64,000 nt of DNA from Limisphaerales bacterium (GCA_047608975.1 JBLFYM010000006.1:5029-69028); one strand, 5' to 3'; positions 25,939-48,886 are shown, counted from the first letter of the stretch. Notes: a model not told the origin generated them from the letters alone. A program made the numbers and translations.

Positions 25939-28077
25939 CTAGAACGTAAGCGTTGCGCCAATTCCGACACTTCGCCCCGGAAGTGGAGCGACGTCTTTTG
26001 CCACCGAGACATGGTTGCGGGCGTCGGCGTTCAGAAGATTGTTTCCCTTGATGAACAGACTTAGGTCTCGATTCCCCCATTTGCGGGTGTGAGTGAGGTC
26101 GGCGTTGAGCAGGGTGTAAGATTTGGTCGGCGTTTCGAAATTTCGCTGGAGGCGATTCTGCGCGAACGAGTGACGGACCTCGGCTCCGAGTTTCCACGGG
26201 CCTTGGCTGTATTCGACGCGATTGCCCACGCGGACCGGAGGGAAACGCGGGATGGCTGTGTCTTGATTGAGATCGGTCGCGCGGACGGAGTCAGCGCTGA
26301 AGTGGTAGGTGAGGCTGGAGTTGGTGGAAGCGGGGAGGAGTTCGTATTCGAGCTGCAATTCGGCACCTTCGAATTTTGCGCGGGTCTGGATGTAGCGAAA
26401 GATGGGCAGACCGTTGACTTCCCAACCGGGACCGATGCCAGTGACGAAGATGTAGTTGTCGAAGTTGTAGGTAAAGTAGGTGACCGAACCGGTCAGTCGG
26501 CCTTTGGTTTTGCGTAAGCTGAATTCGTAGTTCTCGGAACGTTCAAGATCGATTCCGCCCTCGGCTGGTTTGAGGAAGGGAATGCGGTACCAGGCGCCGA
26601 CTTCAAAGGTGCCGGCGGCCAGGTGGGGGCCATTGGAGAAAAGCTCGGTGGAGTTTGGCGGACGGCGGGCGCGAGACCAATTGGCCGCGATTTCAAATCC
26701 GTCCCAGAGCTGCAGTTCGAGTCCGGCGGAAAGGCTGTGCGAATCGTAGGTAAGTCGTTCTTGCCGGATGTTGGCGAAGTTGACGTCCATGATCTGGGTT
26801 TCGAAGCGCCCACCTGCCTGAAGTTTGAGCGGGCCGAGTTCGAGGTTCTCGATGACGTATCCGGCGAAGTTTTCAGTCTGGCTGTCGGGCGTGTTCACTT
26901 CAGGGCCGCGACTGCCGAAGTCGATTGTTCTCCACGTTCCGCCGATGCGTCCGCTGAGTCCACGAAATCGTGCGTGCGTGAGGTCGAGTTTGGTTTCGGT
27001 GGTGGTGTTGCCGAAGTTGTTGTCCAACGTGGCAGCAGCTTCACTTTCTGCGTGTTGGTAGTCGGACCAAGTCCCGCGAAGTTCAATTTCGTCAATCGCA
27101 GCGATCGGGTTGTAGAGTTCGAATTCTCCGTTAAAGCGGATCTGATCGAGGTCAACGGCAACGTCGTTGATCTGCCGATTGACACCGGGACCGAAGTGGC
27201 TGTGAGCGTCCGCATGAAAAGGCACGCCGTATTCGGATTCGATACGGGTGATCGATGCGCCAACACGCCCCTTCTCCCAGAACGTTCCGATGCCACCAGA
27301 TGCGGTCAGTCGATCCGTCCAGGTGTTGGGTAGGGTTCCTTCAGGGTTGGTTGTGGGGTCGTGTGGGTTGAGACGTGCTTTGCCGGGGATATCGTAGTCT
27401 TGGGAAATGCTGCGAAGGACATTGAATTGCAGTGCGAGGTTTTCATTTCCGAGAGTAAGCGCAGTCACTCCGGTTCGTTCCCGAGAAGCGCTTTCCCAGC
27501 GAAGGGATGAGACGCCTTCGTACGACTTGGCCGGTGCGCGTCGTGGAATGCTCTTCGATTTGACGTTCACGACCCCTCCGATGGCAGATCCGCCGAACTC
27601 CAAAGTGGAGGGACCACGCAGGACTTCAATCTCTTCGGAGAGCAGGCTCTCCGCGGTGACTGCGTGGTCGGGGCTGGTCTGAGAAATATCGCCGGTGCCG
27701 ACGCCATCAGAAAGCATCCGTACGCGGTCACCGCTGAACCCGCGAATGACGGGGCGGCTAGATCCCGGACCAAAGGAGGATGAAGTGATGCCCGGTTCCC
27801 ACATCAGTGTGTCGCCAAGCGATGGAGCAATCTTGAGCTGCAAATCAGCGGCATCGAGAAGCGTACGGGATTGAATGATGCGCGTGTCGATGAGGGGAGT
27901 GCTCTCATCCGCCCGGACAACGATTTCATCCAGGATAAAAAGGTTGGTTGATACGGGAACGGTTTCCTGAGCGAACGAGTGAGTGACGCCAAACAAAATT
28001 GCAAACGCAACAATGCAACGGGGCAACGAGTAGTTGCTCAACGGGCGGTATTCATGCTCACGATTCTGTGTATGCAA
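25939..28077 (-). CDS. TonB-dependent receptor, ZnuD-like
   Basis: Signal peptide, plug motifs SSRPVIRG, PDHAV, IEVLRGP, His loop YGVPFHADAHSH, C-terminal Phe (GATLTF). Confidence 0.9.
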   Translation of the reverse strand: MHTQNREHEYRPLSNYSLPRCIVAFAILFGVTHSFAQETVPVSTNLFILDEIVVRADESTPLIDTRIIQSRTLLDAADLQLKIAPSLGDTLMWEPGITSSSFGPGSSRPVIRGFSGDRVRMLSDGVGTGDISQTSPDHAVTAESLLSEEIEVLRGPSTLEFGGSAIGGVVNVKSKSIPRRAPAKSYEGVSSLRWESASRERTGVTALTLGNENLALQFNVLRSISQDYDIPGKARLNPHDPTTNPEGTLPNTWTDRLTASGGIGTFWEKGRVGASITRIESEYGVPFHADAHSHFGPGVNRQINDVAVDLDQIRFNGEFELYNPIAAIDEIELRGTWSDYQHAESEAAATLDNNFGNTTTETKLDLTHARFRGLSGRIGGTWRTIDFGSRGPEVNTPDSQTENFAGYVIENLELGPLKLQAGGRFETQIMDVNFANIRQERLTYDSHSLSAGLELQLWDGFEIAANWSRARRPPNSTELFSNGPHLAAGTFEVGAWYRIPFLKPAEGGIDLERSENYEFSLRKTKGRLTGSVTYFTYNFDNYIFVTGIGPGWEVNGLPIFRYIQTRAKFEGAELQLEYELLPASTNSSLTYHFSADSVRATDLNQDTAIPRFPPVRVGNRVEYSQGPWKLGAEVRHSFAQNRLQRNFETPTKSYTLLNADLTHTRKWGNRDLSLFIKGNNLLNADARNHVSVAKDVAPLPGRSVGIGATLTF

Positions 28078-28183
28078 AGCGTCGTTCCCAGCTTGGCGGC
28101 GCGAACGATGCCAGCCAAAATCATTCGTTCAAGCCGCGATCTCAATTTCAGCGGATGCGCACCATAATACTGGGGATTTAGTA

Positions 28184-28200
28184 TTGCAAATGGTTTGCAA
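28184..28200. promoter_or_regulatory. Palindromic operator (Fur/Zur-type), copy 1
   Basis: (A)TTGCAAA-TGG-TTTGCAA(T) perfect 8-3-8 palindrome between divergent genes; overlaps TTGCAA-N16-TATGTT (+) and TTGCAA-N17-TATGGT (-) promoter-like arrangements. Confidence 0.85.
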
Positions 28201-28225
28201 TTCGATATGTTGCCCCACCTTTGTG

Positions 28226-46829: not shown

Positions 46830-46832
46830 ACC

Positions 46833-47537
46833 ATGACCGCGAATTCCCCAGCAACTGAAGCGAACGCGGTGTATCACGCACCACCCCAGCGTGGTCTGCC
46901 ATTGGCCTCGGCTTTGGTCGCGACCGCGTTTGCTGGCGGCATCTTCATTGCGTTTGCCGTCTTCCAGGTTCAGCCGGTTGAACCCGAAGTTCAGGAAAAG
47001 GCCCGGCTCTTCGCGGTCGTCGAGAATCCACCTCCGCCCGTCAAGCAACCGCCGCCGCCGAAAAAGGATCAACGGGTCGAAGACACGCTCCAGGTTCAGG
47101 TCAAACCCGATCTGCAGGTACCGGTTCCGCCACTCAAGCTCAACCAGCTCAACGTAAAGCTCGTTCCTGACTTCAACACCAGGCTCGCCGGAAACTTCGA
47201 CCTGAATTTCCAATCCGTTGGGCCAGGTGTATCCAATTTCGAAGTCTTCGATCTCAGTGAAGTCGACGACCAGCCCCGAGCGCTCTTTGTTCCGCGTCCG
47301 ACCTATCCCGTTTCGCTCCGCAAGTCCGGCATCTCCGGGCGGGTCATTATTCAATGCATCATCGATTCCGAGGGCAGTCCGCGAGATCTCAGCATTTACC
47401 AATCGACCCATCGAGCCTTCAACGCAGCGGCCTTGAATGCCATCAACAAGGCCCGTTTCCAAGCCGCCACCAAGGGCGGGAGAGCCGTCGCCTCGCACGC
47501 ACAAATTCCATTCCGCTTCGAAGCTCCAGGGAAATGA
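46833..47537 (+). CDS. tonB: Energy transducer TonB
   Basis: TM anchor, Pro-rich spacer, PTYP...GRVIIQCIID...ARFQAA. Confidence 0.9.
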   Translation: MTANSPATEANAVYHAPPQRGLPLASALVATAFAGGIFIAFAVFQVQPVEPEVQEKARLFAVVENPPPPVKQPPPPKKDQRVEDTLQVQVKPDLQVPVPPLKLNQLNVKLVPDFNTRLAGNFDLNFQSVGPGVSNFEVFDLSEVDDQPRALFVPRPTYPVSLRKSGISGRVIIQCIIDSEGSPRDLSIYQSTHRAFNAAALNAINKARFQAATKGGRAVASHAQIPFRFEAPGK

Positions 47538-48886
47538 GAATCCTCCGTCACATCCTCCTGATCGCACTGATCGCCCTCCCCGCCAAGGCAATCGATCTCG
47601 ATTTGAGCCAGGTATTTCGAACTCCGGAATTCAAAGCCCGCTTCGCTGCCAGCTACGGATTCAACTCCTCCGTCGAACCGACCATCACGCAGGAAGAAAA
47701 GCAGCTCCTCGAAGAAGTCGCAGGCATCTTGGCGACGAACATGCCAGTAGCCAGTATCCGGCTGCTCAAAGCCACCACCGCCAATTCAAGCGCCGCCCTG
47801 GACTTCACCCTCGGCAACTTCCTCTTCCAACAGAACAAGCTGGAAGATGCAGCCGCTCAATACCGTATCGCATTGAAGAAGATGCCCGACTTCCTGCGAG
47901 CCCACAAAAACCTCGCACTCATCCAATTCCAACAAGCTGATTACAAGAATTCACTGGCCTCCCTCCTCAAGTCACTCGCTCTCGGCGAAGTCGACGAAAT
48001 GACCTATGGACTGATCGGGCATTGCCACTTCCGCCTCGGACACAATGCCTCCGCCGAATCCGCCTACCGCCGCGCTCTGATATTTGGTCCCAACAACGAA
48101 AATTGGAAACAAGGCCTCGCCAGCACCCTGATCGAACAACGCCGTTACGCCGAAGCGGCGACCTGGCTGGAGGAACTCCTTGTGCTCAAGCCCGATCGCC
48201 CCGACCTCTGGCTCGCCCAAGCCGACACCTATCTCGGTCGTGAAGATATCGATCGAGCTGCTGCCAACTATGAACTGCTCCGTCGCATGGGCAAAGCCAG
48301 CGCTGGCAGCCTCCTGAATCTGGGCGACATCTACGTCAACCAAGGCCTTCCAAAGACCGCCGTGGACACCTACGTTGAAGCCTTGTCCAACCCGCCGCTC
48401 CCCGACCTCCACCGTATGATCCGCGTCGCACGGGTCATTCTCGAGCAACAACACCCAAAAGCTTCCAGTCGCTTGGTCACGGCCTTGGAGCAATCCTATC
48501 CGTCCAAAACCGAAGATCTTCTACGTTTGAAATCTCGCATTGCCTTTAGCCAAGGAGATTCCACTGCCGCCACGGCCACGCTCGAATCCCTCCTCGAGCA
48601 AAACCCTACCGACGGCGAAACCCTGATCCTCTTGGGCGACCACTACGCCGTCCACGAAGAGAAAGAAAAACAAGAACGCGCTGCGCTCCTCTACGAACGC
48701 GCCTCCCGCATCGATGGCTTCGCCGCCCGCGCCATGGTAAAGCAAGCGATCATGCTCGTCCGCCGCAATCAGTTCGAGAAAGCAGTGCTGCTCCTGAAGA
48801 ACGCACAGGCGATCGATCCCAAGCCAAACGTCGCCGAGTACCTGGATCGACTCACGCGGGTCCTTGCCATATCCGACCAACCTTGA
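47534..48886 (+). CDS. Tetratricopeptide repeat protein (TtpD-like)
   Basis: Signal peptide MRILRHILLIAL, many TPR helices; ATGA overlap with tonB. Confidence 0.88.
   Translation: MRILRHILLIALIALPAKAIDLDLSQVFRTPEFKARFAASYGFNSSVEPTITQEEKQLLEEVAGILATNMPVASIRLLKATTANSSAALDFTLGNFLFQQNKLEDAAAQYRIALKKMPDFLRAHKNLALIQFQQADYKNSLASLLKSLALGEVDEMTYGLIGHCHFRLGHNASAESAYRRALIFGPNNENWKQGLASTLIEQRRYAEAATWLEELLVLKPDRPDLWLAQADTYLGREDIDRAAANYELLRRMGKASAGSLLNLGDIYVNQGLPKTAVDTYVEALSNPPLPDLHRMIRVARVILEQQHPKASSRLVTALEQSYPSKTEDLLRLKSRIAFSQGDSTAATATLESLLEQNPTDGETLILLGDHYAVHEEKEKQERAALLYERASRIDGFAARAMVKQAIMLVRRNQFEKAVLLLKNAQAIDPKPNVAEYLDRLTRVLAISDQP

Follow-up and report, generated by a model that had tools for sequence, protein, structure and literature searches.

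How zinc passes the outer membrane, and how it is handed over there, is poorly understood outside a few pathogens. The locus described here raises the question of whether a marine verrucomicrobial bacterium has assembled the genes for such a route in one place, and under which control. It occupies positions 25939-48886 of a 64,000-nt stretch of DNA (the window) from Limisphaerales bacterium (GCA_047608975.1 JBLFYM010000006.1:5029-69028) and holds about 20 genes in 23 kb. A first-pass annotation had described it as a self-contained zinc-starvation machine. Genes were called from an open reading frame (ORF) map together with Pfam and NCBIfam scans, and coordinates are window positions; G000 denotes this genome (a 6.4-Mb assembly of 277 contigs, Cn), Gnnn other genomes and Lnnn individual loci. 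Every gene listed by that annotation was recovered where it had been placed, and the proposed boundaries are right, because the flanks code for sulfatases, a planctomycete-type cytochrome and an exonuclease, all unrelated to the genes of the locus.

We conclude that the locus is a real, conserved, co-regulated and operator-linked metal-acquisition island, most likely for zinc starvation, and we judge it likely, from its sequence, to be the main part of the zinc-starvation regulon of this marine Verrucomicrobiales/Limisphaerales bacterium. It consists mostly of known parts, joined to uncharacterised histidine-lined secreted proteins and to a small leader of the stalling-peptide kind. It also gives a first outline of how a zinc regulon is built in marine Verrucomicrobia, whose habitat is poor in zinc.

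Shared operators and the extent of the regulon

The three divergent promoter regions of the locus had been reported to carry the same palindrome, and this could be sharpened to one or two boxes in each region. ATTGCAA-N5-TTGCAAT, with up to two mismatches, occurs at 28183, 36066, 36173, 39198 and 39247, five sites where 0.23 are expected, a number attained in none of 100 shuffles. Operator 1, a perfect ATTGCAAATGGTTTGCAAT (28183-28201), separates the gene of a TonB-dependent receptor from that of a secreted protein with two choice-of-anchor-M (CoA-M) domains, and a box is found in the same position in G036, a genome from another family of the order. Operator 2 (36066-36084, two mismatches) abuts the ATG of a small leader gene and is conserved in the congeners G002 and G003 and in contig L108. 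Operator 3 (36173-36191), 36 nt upstream of a gene for a Fur-family paralogue (FurL), operator 4 (39198-39216), 37 nt upstream of an ABC ATPase gene, and operator 5 (39247-39265), at the annotated ATG of a COG0523 GTPase gene, each have one mismatch and are conserved in G002 and G003. Met33 (39344) is probably the true start of the COG0523 gene. Between the leader and the FurL gene, a further block, TCGTCAAGG(G)TTTTGG (36100-36125), is kept in G000, G002 and G003 (alignment A5), and L108 has its core TCGTCAAG as well; the block could serve as a promoter element or as the site of a second factor.

Across the whole 6.4-Mb assembly, only four 19-mers match the palindrome with at most one mismatch, and all four lie inside the locus. 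A looser search (at most one mismatch in 12 positions) returned 13 sites genome-wide against 14 for a reversed-pattern control; since loose matches are not enriched, the weight of the operator rests on clustering, intergenic position and conservation. A palindrome site on contig C7 lies within a coding frame and was treated as a chance occurrence.

Two box-linked operons outside the locus define what the palindrome serves. On contig C5, a perfect TTGCAA-N5-TTGCAA stands 48 nt upstream of a gene for a ZIP-family permease, followed by a canonical Fur-family gene encoding the motif HHHHLIC. On contig C62, a box with two mismatches abuts the ATG of a paralogue of the leader, which heads an operon (L003, 2629-7205, minus strand) encoding this 116-aa RAPP-terminal, His-rich peptide, a 517-aa protein (X517), an AztC-like substrate-binding protein of the ZnuA type, an ABC ATPase (ZnuC) and an ABC-3 permease (ZnuB). 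X517, which has no family match, combines an N-terminal coiled coil with a barrel-like C-terminus ending in F and is possibly an outer-membrane channel; a homologue, 52% identical, is encoded between a box and ZnuA in G068 (L129). Because the same box precedes the ZIP-Fur pair and the leader-X517-ZnuABC operon, the regulon exceeds the locus, and the description of the locus as self-contained has to be dropped, all the more as its likelier repressor is encoded elsewhere. The same two operons uphold its identification as a metal-acquisition locus with zinc as the best-supported metal: as in a Zur regulon, zinc-uptake genes share a palindromic operator in their upstream regions, and the boxes are kept in orthologous promoters.

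The locus recurs in other genomes. In the congeners G002 and G003, its central and right-hand part is found in the same order with boxes at the same places, comprising the COG0523 operon (to the contig end), the ABC operon, FurL, the leader and a multi-domain CoA-M gene, which in G002 encodes about seven domains. Neither genome was found to have the receptor, two-domain CoA-M or MFS/SpeE gene beside this part, and G002 has further CoA-M genes on another contig. G036 carries MerC, FurL (41% identical), a partial COG0523 match, the TonB2-type set, the receptor (49%), a two-domain CoA-M gene (44%), a longer CoA-M gene (about six domains), the His-rich tetratricopeptide repeat (TPR) protein and the ABC ATPase, in a different arrangement and again with intergenic boxes. 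On a metagenomic contig (L023), DUF3450-ExbB-ExbB-ExbD-TonB-TPR is followed by the receptor, divergent from a two-domain CoA-M gene (46% identical), and L108 has the ABC-2/His-TPR genes, FurL (70%), a box, the leader and a multi-domain CoA-M gene. The gene set therefore co-occurs with conserved operators in G002, G003 and G036 and, in part, in L108 and L023, against the possibility, raised with the original proposal, that its genes never co-occur elsewhere.

Secreted choice-of-anchor-M proteins and the ZnuD-like receptor

The minus-strand gene at 25939-28077 encodes a TonB-dependent receptor with plug and barrel Pfam domains. ZnuD (NF038289) is its best-scoring NCBIfam model, with a full-length alignment and an E value of 1e-87, but the 295.3 bits fall below the equivalog cut-off of 950, so that the protein is ZnuD-like only. 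In receptors of the ZnuD type, a His/Asp-rich external loop binds zinc. A short His cluster, FHADAHSHF, containing the motif HADAHSH, lies at about residues 288-297 of the receptor (window 26900-27000).

Divergent from the receptor gene, the plus-strand gene at 28226-29887 encodes a secreted protein with two CoA-M domains and a C-terminal RFYR module. A second secreted protein, from the minus-strand gene at 32593-35601 (likely start at ATG 35562), has four CoA-M domains with a 200-aa period, an immunoglobulin-like (Ig-like) stalk and an RFFR C-terminal module. Both pass the NF038134 cut-off of 55, with 182.6 bits for the two-domain protein and 335.8 bits, over four stretches, for the four-domain protein; both carry Sec signal peptides and no lipobox, and the latter has extra histidines in FHTEF, GHHEH and THN.

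Literature searches for 'choice-of-anchor M' and 'TIGR03769' returned annotation mentions or nothing, and no functional or structural study of the domain. In an alignment of 35 single CoA-M domains (A2), H159 and H161 (HxH) are invariant, D11 is near-invariant, and a His or Glu stands two residues before it. This H/E-D...H-x-H set is a plausible candidate for a four-ligand metal site. AlphaFold2 modelled the two-domain protein with a mean pLDDT (predicted local distance difference test score) of 74 and a single domain with a pLDDT of 94.5 and a pTM (predicted template-modelling score) of 0.90. Searched against the PDB, the two-domain model gave only generic tandem Ig-like matches at a TM-score of about 0.15, and a PDB sequence search gave no match. 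For the single domain, nothing was found in the PDB at E <= 0.001 (best E 3e-3, TM-score 0.31), and that no fold relative backs the metal site counts against it.

Genomic context provided a second line of evidence. One genome per species was scanned, giving 323 stretches that encode CoA-M relatives, of which 78 distinct loci were kept; they belong to Verrucomicrobiota and Planctomycetota, to many Actinomycetota and to a few further groups. Cultured bacteria with CoA-M loci include Roseibacillus ishigakijimensis KCTC 12986, whose CoA-M gene has a receptor gene beside it (L083), and Cerasicoccus arenae KCTC 12870 (L096). The 10-kb surroundings of the 78 loci hold genes for 11 ZnuD-like receptors, each of them verrucomicrobial, and for 11 ZnuA-type binding proteins, together with 13 Fur-family genes, 8 COG0523 genes and 4 ABC-2/His-TPR modules. 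Four further genera of the order also have a Fur-family gene 0.5-2 kb away from CoA-M genes. This context supports a role of CoA-M proteins in metal capture, and the locus offers a lead towards a function for a domain found in Verrucomicrobia, Planctomycetota and many Actinobacteria. Zinc would then be the bound metal, and the proteins would act outside the cytoplasm. Literature searches returned no description of a CoA-M protein paired with a ZnuD-like receptor.

Among the closest known relatives are the actinobacterial 'anchored repeat' ABC sets (TIGR03769/03772/03773), which share the CoA-M domain family, its extracytoplasmic location and the neighbourhood of metal-uptake genes. Their partner is a TroA/ZnuA-type ABC importer and their anchor an LPXTG motif, whereas the locus pairs the domain with an outer-membrane receptor and a TonB2 motor and ends it with another C-terminal module. 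A side observation concerns that module. On contig C11 of G000 (about 62408-74400), a TonB2-type cluster is followed by genes for a 997-aa TonB-dependent receptor and a 1081-aa protein, which resembles the CoA-M proteins only in its C-terminal stalk and RFFR module; this suggests that the module is a lineage-specific sorting or anchoring module of receptor-partner proteins.

On which side of the outer membrane would the CoA-M proteins work? The first-pass annotation placed them on the surface, handing zinc to the receptor, an unproven proposal that draws on adjacency and on the conserved candidate ligands. They might instead be periplasmic metallochaperones or buffers acting after the receptor, as ZinT and AztD do, and passing zinc to ZnuA, MerC or ZIP. 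This alternative has a real, if lesser, chance of being right: it agrees with the Sec signal peptides lacking a lipobox, with a CoA-M gene directly upstream of ZnuA-ZnuC on a contig of another Gram-negative bacterium, and with the actinobacterial domain being part of, or beside, TroA-type binding proteins (TIGR03772/TIGR03773 matches). Against it, the RF(Y/F)R module also ends the large protein beside the C11 receptor and TonB2 cluster, hinting at a common sorting signal; the close divergent arrangement of CoA-M and receptor genes in 11 loci is compatible with both locations.

Identity of the regulator and of the metal

To which Fur-family protein do the boxes belong? The ZIP and Fur-family (PF01475) genes form an operon on C5, thus linking a Fur-family gene to a zinc transporter as in Zur regulons. 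The pairing is kept in 7 of the 10 genomes searched and is preceded by a box in G000, G003, G004, G005 and G016, the last three of which have no FurL. Because box and ZIP-Fur pair are conserved together, the classic signature of an autoregulated uptake repressor, we assign the box to the ZIP-linked paralogue as a putative Zur; encoded on another contig, it is most likely the repressor of the locus.

The second candidate is FurL itself (36227-36700, plus strand; PF01475, a weak but clear match of 44 bits), an atypical paralogue that keeps the helix-turn-helix motif (TQYR) and both CxxC pairs and has HLPGESND where the sensing His cluster sits (alignment A4), a substitution kept in its orthologues at 40-85% identity. 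Literature searches returned no description of a Fur paralogue without this cluster. FurL could act in feedback, compete at the same box or be the true local repressor. That FurL rather than the ZIP-linked paralogue binds the locus palindromes, or that both do in a graded or feedback response, is a tentative alternative. Its gene has a box on either side and has been kept together with the locus in G002, G003, G036 and L108, the only places in which orthologues were found; its DNA-binding motif and CxxC pairs are intact; and G002 has boxes although no orthologue of the ZIP-linked regulator was found there, in an assembly that is only 92% complete. Against it stand the missing canonical His cluster and the conservation of box and ZIP-Fur operon in the FurL-less G004, G005 and G016.

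Zinc is favoured as the metal because the regulon includes a ZIP transporter and a ZnuABC-type importer, because its COG0523 GTPase is nearest ZigA and because its receptor is nearest ZnuD. We hold this with good confidence, and zinc would then also be the signal. The GTPase (39248-40531, plus strand; GCFCC motif, cobW and CobW_C Pfam domains) scores best with the ZigA model NF038288, at 288 bits against 141.7 for CobW.

Several results weigh against this reading of regulator and metal, in addition to the modest receptor score. The 288 bits of the GTPase remain far below the ZigA cut-off of 600. The Zur model NF008646 gives the ZIP-linked regulator 35 bits against a cut-off of 167, and the NCBIfam Fur and PerR models outscore Zur for this protein, all below their cut-offs. 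The absence of the ZIP-linked orthologue from the available G002 assembly, despite its operators, belongs here as well, as does the order-wide spread of the ABC-2/His-TPR module, which is mostly not operator-linked (11 of 14 module loci have no box). Finally, the operator has the form of the box of the nickel regulator Nur, unlike known Zur boxes, described as being of the n-1-n type (PMC6103462). The Streptomyces coelicolor Nur box is tTGCaa-N5-ttGCAA, a 6-5-6 palindrome bound by a Fur-family protein and identical in its half-sites to the box of the locus (PMC2691836).

Could the regulon then answer nickel or cobalt through a Nur-like Fur paralogue, with the His-rich proteins, the receptor and the COG0523 protein serving these metals? 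Besides the shared operator, the PDB matches for the ZIP-linked regulator include Nur (3eyy; E 2.7e-15), CobW falls within COG0523, and TonB-dependent nickel uptake is known, according to a reference cited in PMC4176598. We nevertheless regard nickel or cobalt as improbable. Nur controls nickel uptake and sodF, whereas no nickel transporter and no sodF or sodN was found among the targets of the box, which are ZIP, ZnuABC-type, COG0523 and ZnuD-like receptor genes, and no signature of a Ni site was established. No model for nickel, cobalt or copper uptake, and none for Nik, NiCoT, urease, hydrogenase or sodN, matched in the locus or the box-linked operons, which do encode a ZIP transporter and a ZnuA/AztC-like binding protein with an ABC-3 permease. 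The receptor and the GTPase are best matched by ZnuD and by ZigA, the latter well above CobW, and the neighbours of CoA-M genes across bacteria include ZnuA, Fur-family and COG0523 genes. We found no description of a Nur-type 6-5-6 operator in a zinc context in literature searches, and its presence before zinc genes warns against reading the metal from the sequence of a box.

The leader peptide and the remaining modules

The minus-strand gene at 35698-36066 encodes a 122-aa, His/Cys-rich peptide with a signal peptide, HLPGLHAELH, a His/Cys tract, HQC and the C-terminus PGRAPPVS. Its orthologues, 55-59% identical, keep SSSA(L/I)PGRAPP exactly, and the C62 paralogue (32% identical, E 2e-10), at the head of its ZnuABC-type operon, ends in PPGRAPPIV. 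No other RAPP-terminal ORF of the genome carries an export signal. When 1.84 billion representatives were searched with a profile, just 24 clusters were recovered, all of the same build, with PGRAPP two or three residues before the stop. Among 27 family members whose spacing was analysed, both motifs were found in 23. In 16 of these 23, the conserved Cys precedes the Arg of RAPP by 48 residues, and the spacing ranges from 46 to 49 overall, despite a variable sequence in between.

These features recall CruR (Bp2923, DUF2946) of Bordetella pertussis, in which copper sensed by a CXXC motif 45 residues before RAPP relieves a ribosome arrest and so allows Rho to terminate transcription before the gene of a TonB-dependent transporter (PMC9426467). 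RAPP-terminal small proteins have also been catalogued upstream of metal genes (PMC12992588). As in CruR, the leaders are small exported proteins that head metal-uptake operons and carry RAPP two or three residues before the stop, with a comparable Cys-motif-to-RAPP spacing (48 against 45), and the long intergenic regions that follow them are C-rich and G-poor (31-37% C against 20-23% G), compatible with a putative Rho loading site. Five of 10 leader relatives scanned have full-length matches to DUF2946 (PF11162) below threshold (13.9-23.3 bits against a gathering score of 23.7). Unlike CruR, the leader family does not keep CXXC, having instead H-x-C, preceded by a His-rich tract, and an HLPELHAxLH motif; it appears in an apparent zinc context (ZnuABC, CoA-M), and the leader of the locus has a Fur-type operator added and lies below Pfam detection. 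Two results speak against the assignment: the window leader has no Pfam DUF2946 match at E <= 0.05, and the RNA fold of the region between the leader and the four-domain CoA-M gene is unexceptional (z = -0.67), so that no structural attenuator is claimed. We conclude that the leader is a distant His-type branch of the CruR kind within a zinc-type regulon, which gives real content to the earlier suspicion of two-tier control. No description of a CruR-like leader in a zinc context was found in literature searches, the kind having so far been shown only for copper. The finding is a lead for extending RAPP/CruR-type nascent-peptide metal sensing from copper to, probably, zinc; if true, the leader would be the first arrest peptide that responds to zinc.

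In other bacteria, TlpA-type proteins take part in assembling copper centres, a point in favour of copper as the target. The reading that CruR-type leaders, TlpA-like thioredoxins and MerC-like thiol transporters mark soft-metal (copper) acquisition, and the fact that characterised DUF2946/CruR-type and related leaders all sense copper (PMC9426467), are outweighed by the H-x-C and His runs in place of CXXC, the leader paralogue heading a ZnuABC-type operon, the 50.7 bits of the TonB-copper receptor model against 295 for ZnuD, and a regulon that includes a ZIP transporter and COG0523, which makes copper very improbable.

With zinc as the most likely metal, the parts suggest the following scheme. 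A Fur-family repressor would bind 6-5-6 TTGCAA-N5-TTGCAA in the three divergent promoter regions and, at low zinc, release four to five transcription units. The ZnuD-like receptor, energised by its own TonB2-type six-protein motor, would bring zinc across the outer membrane, and the secreted CoA-M proteins, with two and four domains carrying His/Glu-Asp...His-x-His, would capture or buffer it outside the cytoplasm, near the receptor. Passage across the inner membrane would fall to MerC together with two systems encoded outside the locus behind the same box, ZIP and ZnuABC. The two TlpA-like proteins may keep Cys ligands reduced or hold metal, and the COG0523 GTPase may allocate zinc in the cytoplasm. 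The ABC-2 transporter, with one ATPase and two permeases, and its His-rich TPR protein may parallel Caulobacter ZnuGHI. As a second layer of control, the exported His-rich leader would stall the ribosome at its C-terminal RAPP and thereby keep the four-domain CoA-M operon expressed, until metal on the nascent chain relieved the stall and allowed premature termination. A bolder joint reading, to which we give a rather low probability, is that of an outer-membrane zinc-capture route of the PVC (Planctomycetes-Verrucomicrobia-Chlamydiae) group, in which multivalent secreted CoA-M proteins with a new beta-sandwich metal fold based on His/Glu-Asp-His-His would feed a ZnuD-like receptor driven by a private TonB2 system under two stacked sensors, a Zur with a Nur-type operator reading cytoplasmic zinc and a His-type CruR-like nascent peptide reading extracytoplasmic zinc by stalling at RAPP, with FurL in feedback. 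What is most original in the island is that CoA-M proteins partner a receptor, that a Nur-type operator stands in a zinc context, that the CruR-like leaders are of a His type and that one Fur paralogue is devoid of its sensing site.

The remaining genes are for the most part joined in the plus-strand operon at 39248-48886, whose 9.6 kb, with gaps from overlaps up to 76 nt, bear out the tightly coupled operon of about 9.5 kb described initially. The COG0523 gene is followed by those of a membrane-anchored TlpA/ResA-like thioredoxin with WCDQC (40550-41149; AhpC-TSA/Redoxin), a HEAT and TlpA-like domain protein with SPEC instead of CxxC and a (CETD)4 Cys/His insert (41113-42288), a MerC-family inner-membrane protein (42285-42779) and ABC-2 permease b (42786-43562; PF12679/PF12730). 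Next come a TtpB-like DUF3450 protein (43639-44424; PF11932, 111.5 bits), a long, TtpC-like MotA/ExbB protein (44421-45830; PF01618), ExbB (45820-46416; PF01618), ExbD (46419-46829; PF02472), TonB (46833-47537; PF03544) and a TtpD-like TPR protein with matches to multiple TPR families (47534-48886), which holds the same position in L023 and G036.

By Pfam domains and coordinates, these last six genes have the order of the Vibrio TonB2 system (TtpB-TtpC-ExbB2-ExbD2-TonB2-TtpD), the protein of the last gene being a TPR protein in the locus (PMC6957404). That system, indispensable as a whole in Vibrio vulnificus (PMC6957404), is under iron/Fur control and works with siderophore receptors, whereas the set described here shares an operon with COG0523, TlpA, MerC and ABC-2 permease genes under another operator. 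Second and third TonB2-type clusters lie on C11 and C22.

MerC matches PF03203 with 69.3 bits (cut-off 27.6), and its gene adjoins Fur/COG0523 genes in G036 and G047; it is a candidate thiol-lined inner-membrane metal importer. The Pfam and NCBIfam scans detected no mer genes in the locus. The TlpA pair might act as reductant or holder. No counterpart of the COG0523-TlpA-TlpA(SxxC, CETD repeat)-MerC cassette in a zinc regulon was found in the literature examined. Within the second TlpA-like gene, an exact 12-bp repeat occurs four times (41881-41990) and encodes the (CETD)4 run, which is flanked by His.

The minus-strand ABC-2 operon comprises the genes of a DrrA/NatA-like ABC ATPase (38412-39161; PF00005; TIGR01188, 196.6 bits), permease a (37595-38488; PF12679) and, third, a His/acidic-rich TPR protein with TPR Pfam matches (36657-37598). 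Permease a is a divergent paralogue, 25-32% identical to the order-wide permease, of which permease b is the orthologue (43-50% identity to the permeases of modules elsewhere). In G000, the ancestral permease now belongs to the COG0523 operon, its former place being occupied by the divergent paralogue. Of 101 genomes of the order, 76 have the operon of ATPase, b-type permease and His-TPR protein, usually with neither operator nor CoA-M gene, so that the modules occur separately and the notion of one machine is not supported; the modules are co-regulated and need not form one physical complex. A dedicated CoA-M exporter was considered and rejected, as the module occurs in 18 of the 27 genomes with CoA-M (27 of 101), showing no enrichment over the order, and most of its loci have no box. 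In 14 genomes of the order, its loci (L124-L137) mostly have no zinc-gene neighbours; in G047 and G068 it lies beside ZnuA, COG0523, MerC or Fur genes.

The Acinetobacter baumannii Zur regulon reportedly includes znuD, zigA and a tonB-exbB-exbD set co-regulated by zinc. It would thus resemble the locus in its ZnuD-type receptor, COG0523 GTPase and dedicated TonB-ExbB-ExbD, and is said to differ in its scattered genes, its three-gene TonB system and its lack of CoA-M proteins, ABC-2 module and leader. In Caulobacter crescentus, the Zur regulon contains the znuK and znuL receptors, the znuGHI ABC-2 transporter and the zrpW-zrpX COG0523 genes (PMC4176598). Shared with the locus are a Fur-family-controlled ABC-2 system of one ATPase and two permeases, a COG0523 protein in the regulon and a receptor divergent from ABC-2 at a shared palindrome (PMC4176598), the ABC-2 likeness being one of arrangement, not of compared sequences. 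Caulobacter has no CoA-M protein, in-locus TonB2 motor, leader peptide, TlpA, MerC or second Fur paralogue, and its operator, an inverted repeat GTTAT...ATAAC, differs from the box described here. The first-pass view that the composition is undescribed thus stands for the whole set and not for its parts, since TonB2, a Zur-regulated receptor with COG0523 and ABC-2, and the CruR-type RAPP upstream ORF all have precedents.

The minus-strand gene at 29949-32543 encodes a fused multi-transmembrane (MFS)/spermidine-synthase-like (SpeE) protein (NF037959, 78.6 bits, cut-off 40; PF01564) and is probably co-transcribed with the four-domain CoA-M gene. It is adjacent in the close relatives L031 and L032, and the regions read in G002 and G036 showed no such gene beside the locus; a role as a conserved metallophore enzyme is speculation. 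Sulfatase genes lie on either side of the locus, at 21613-23277 and 52747-54162. On the related metagenomic contigs L023 and L024, a sulfatase gene is also found directly downstream of the two-domain CoA-M gene, and such neighbours probably reflect a polysaccharide-degrading lifestyle, not the metal system.

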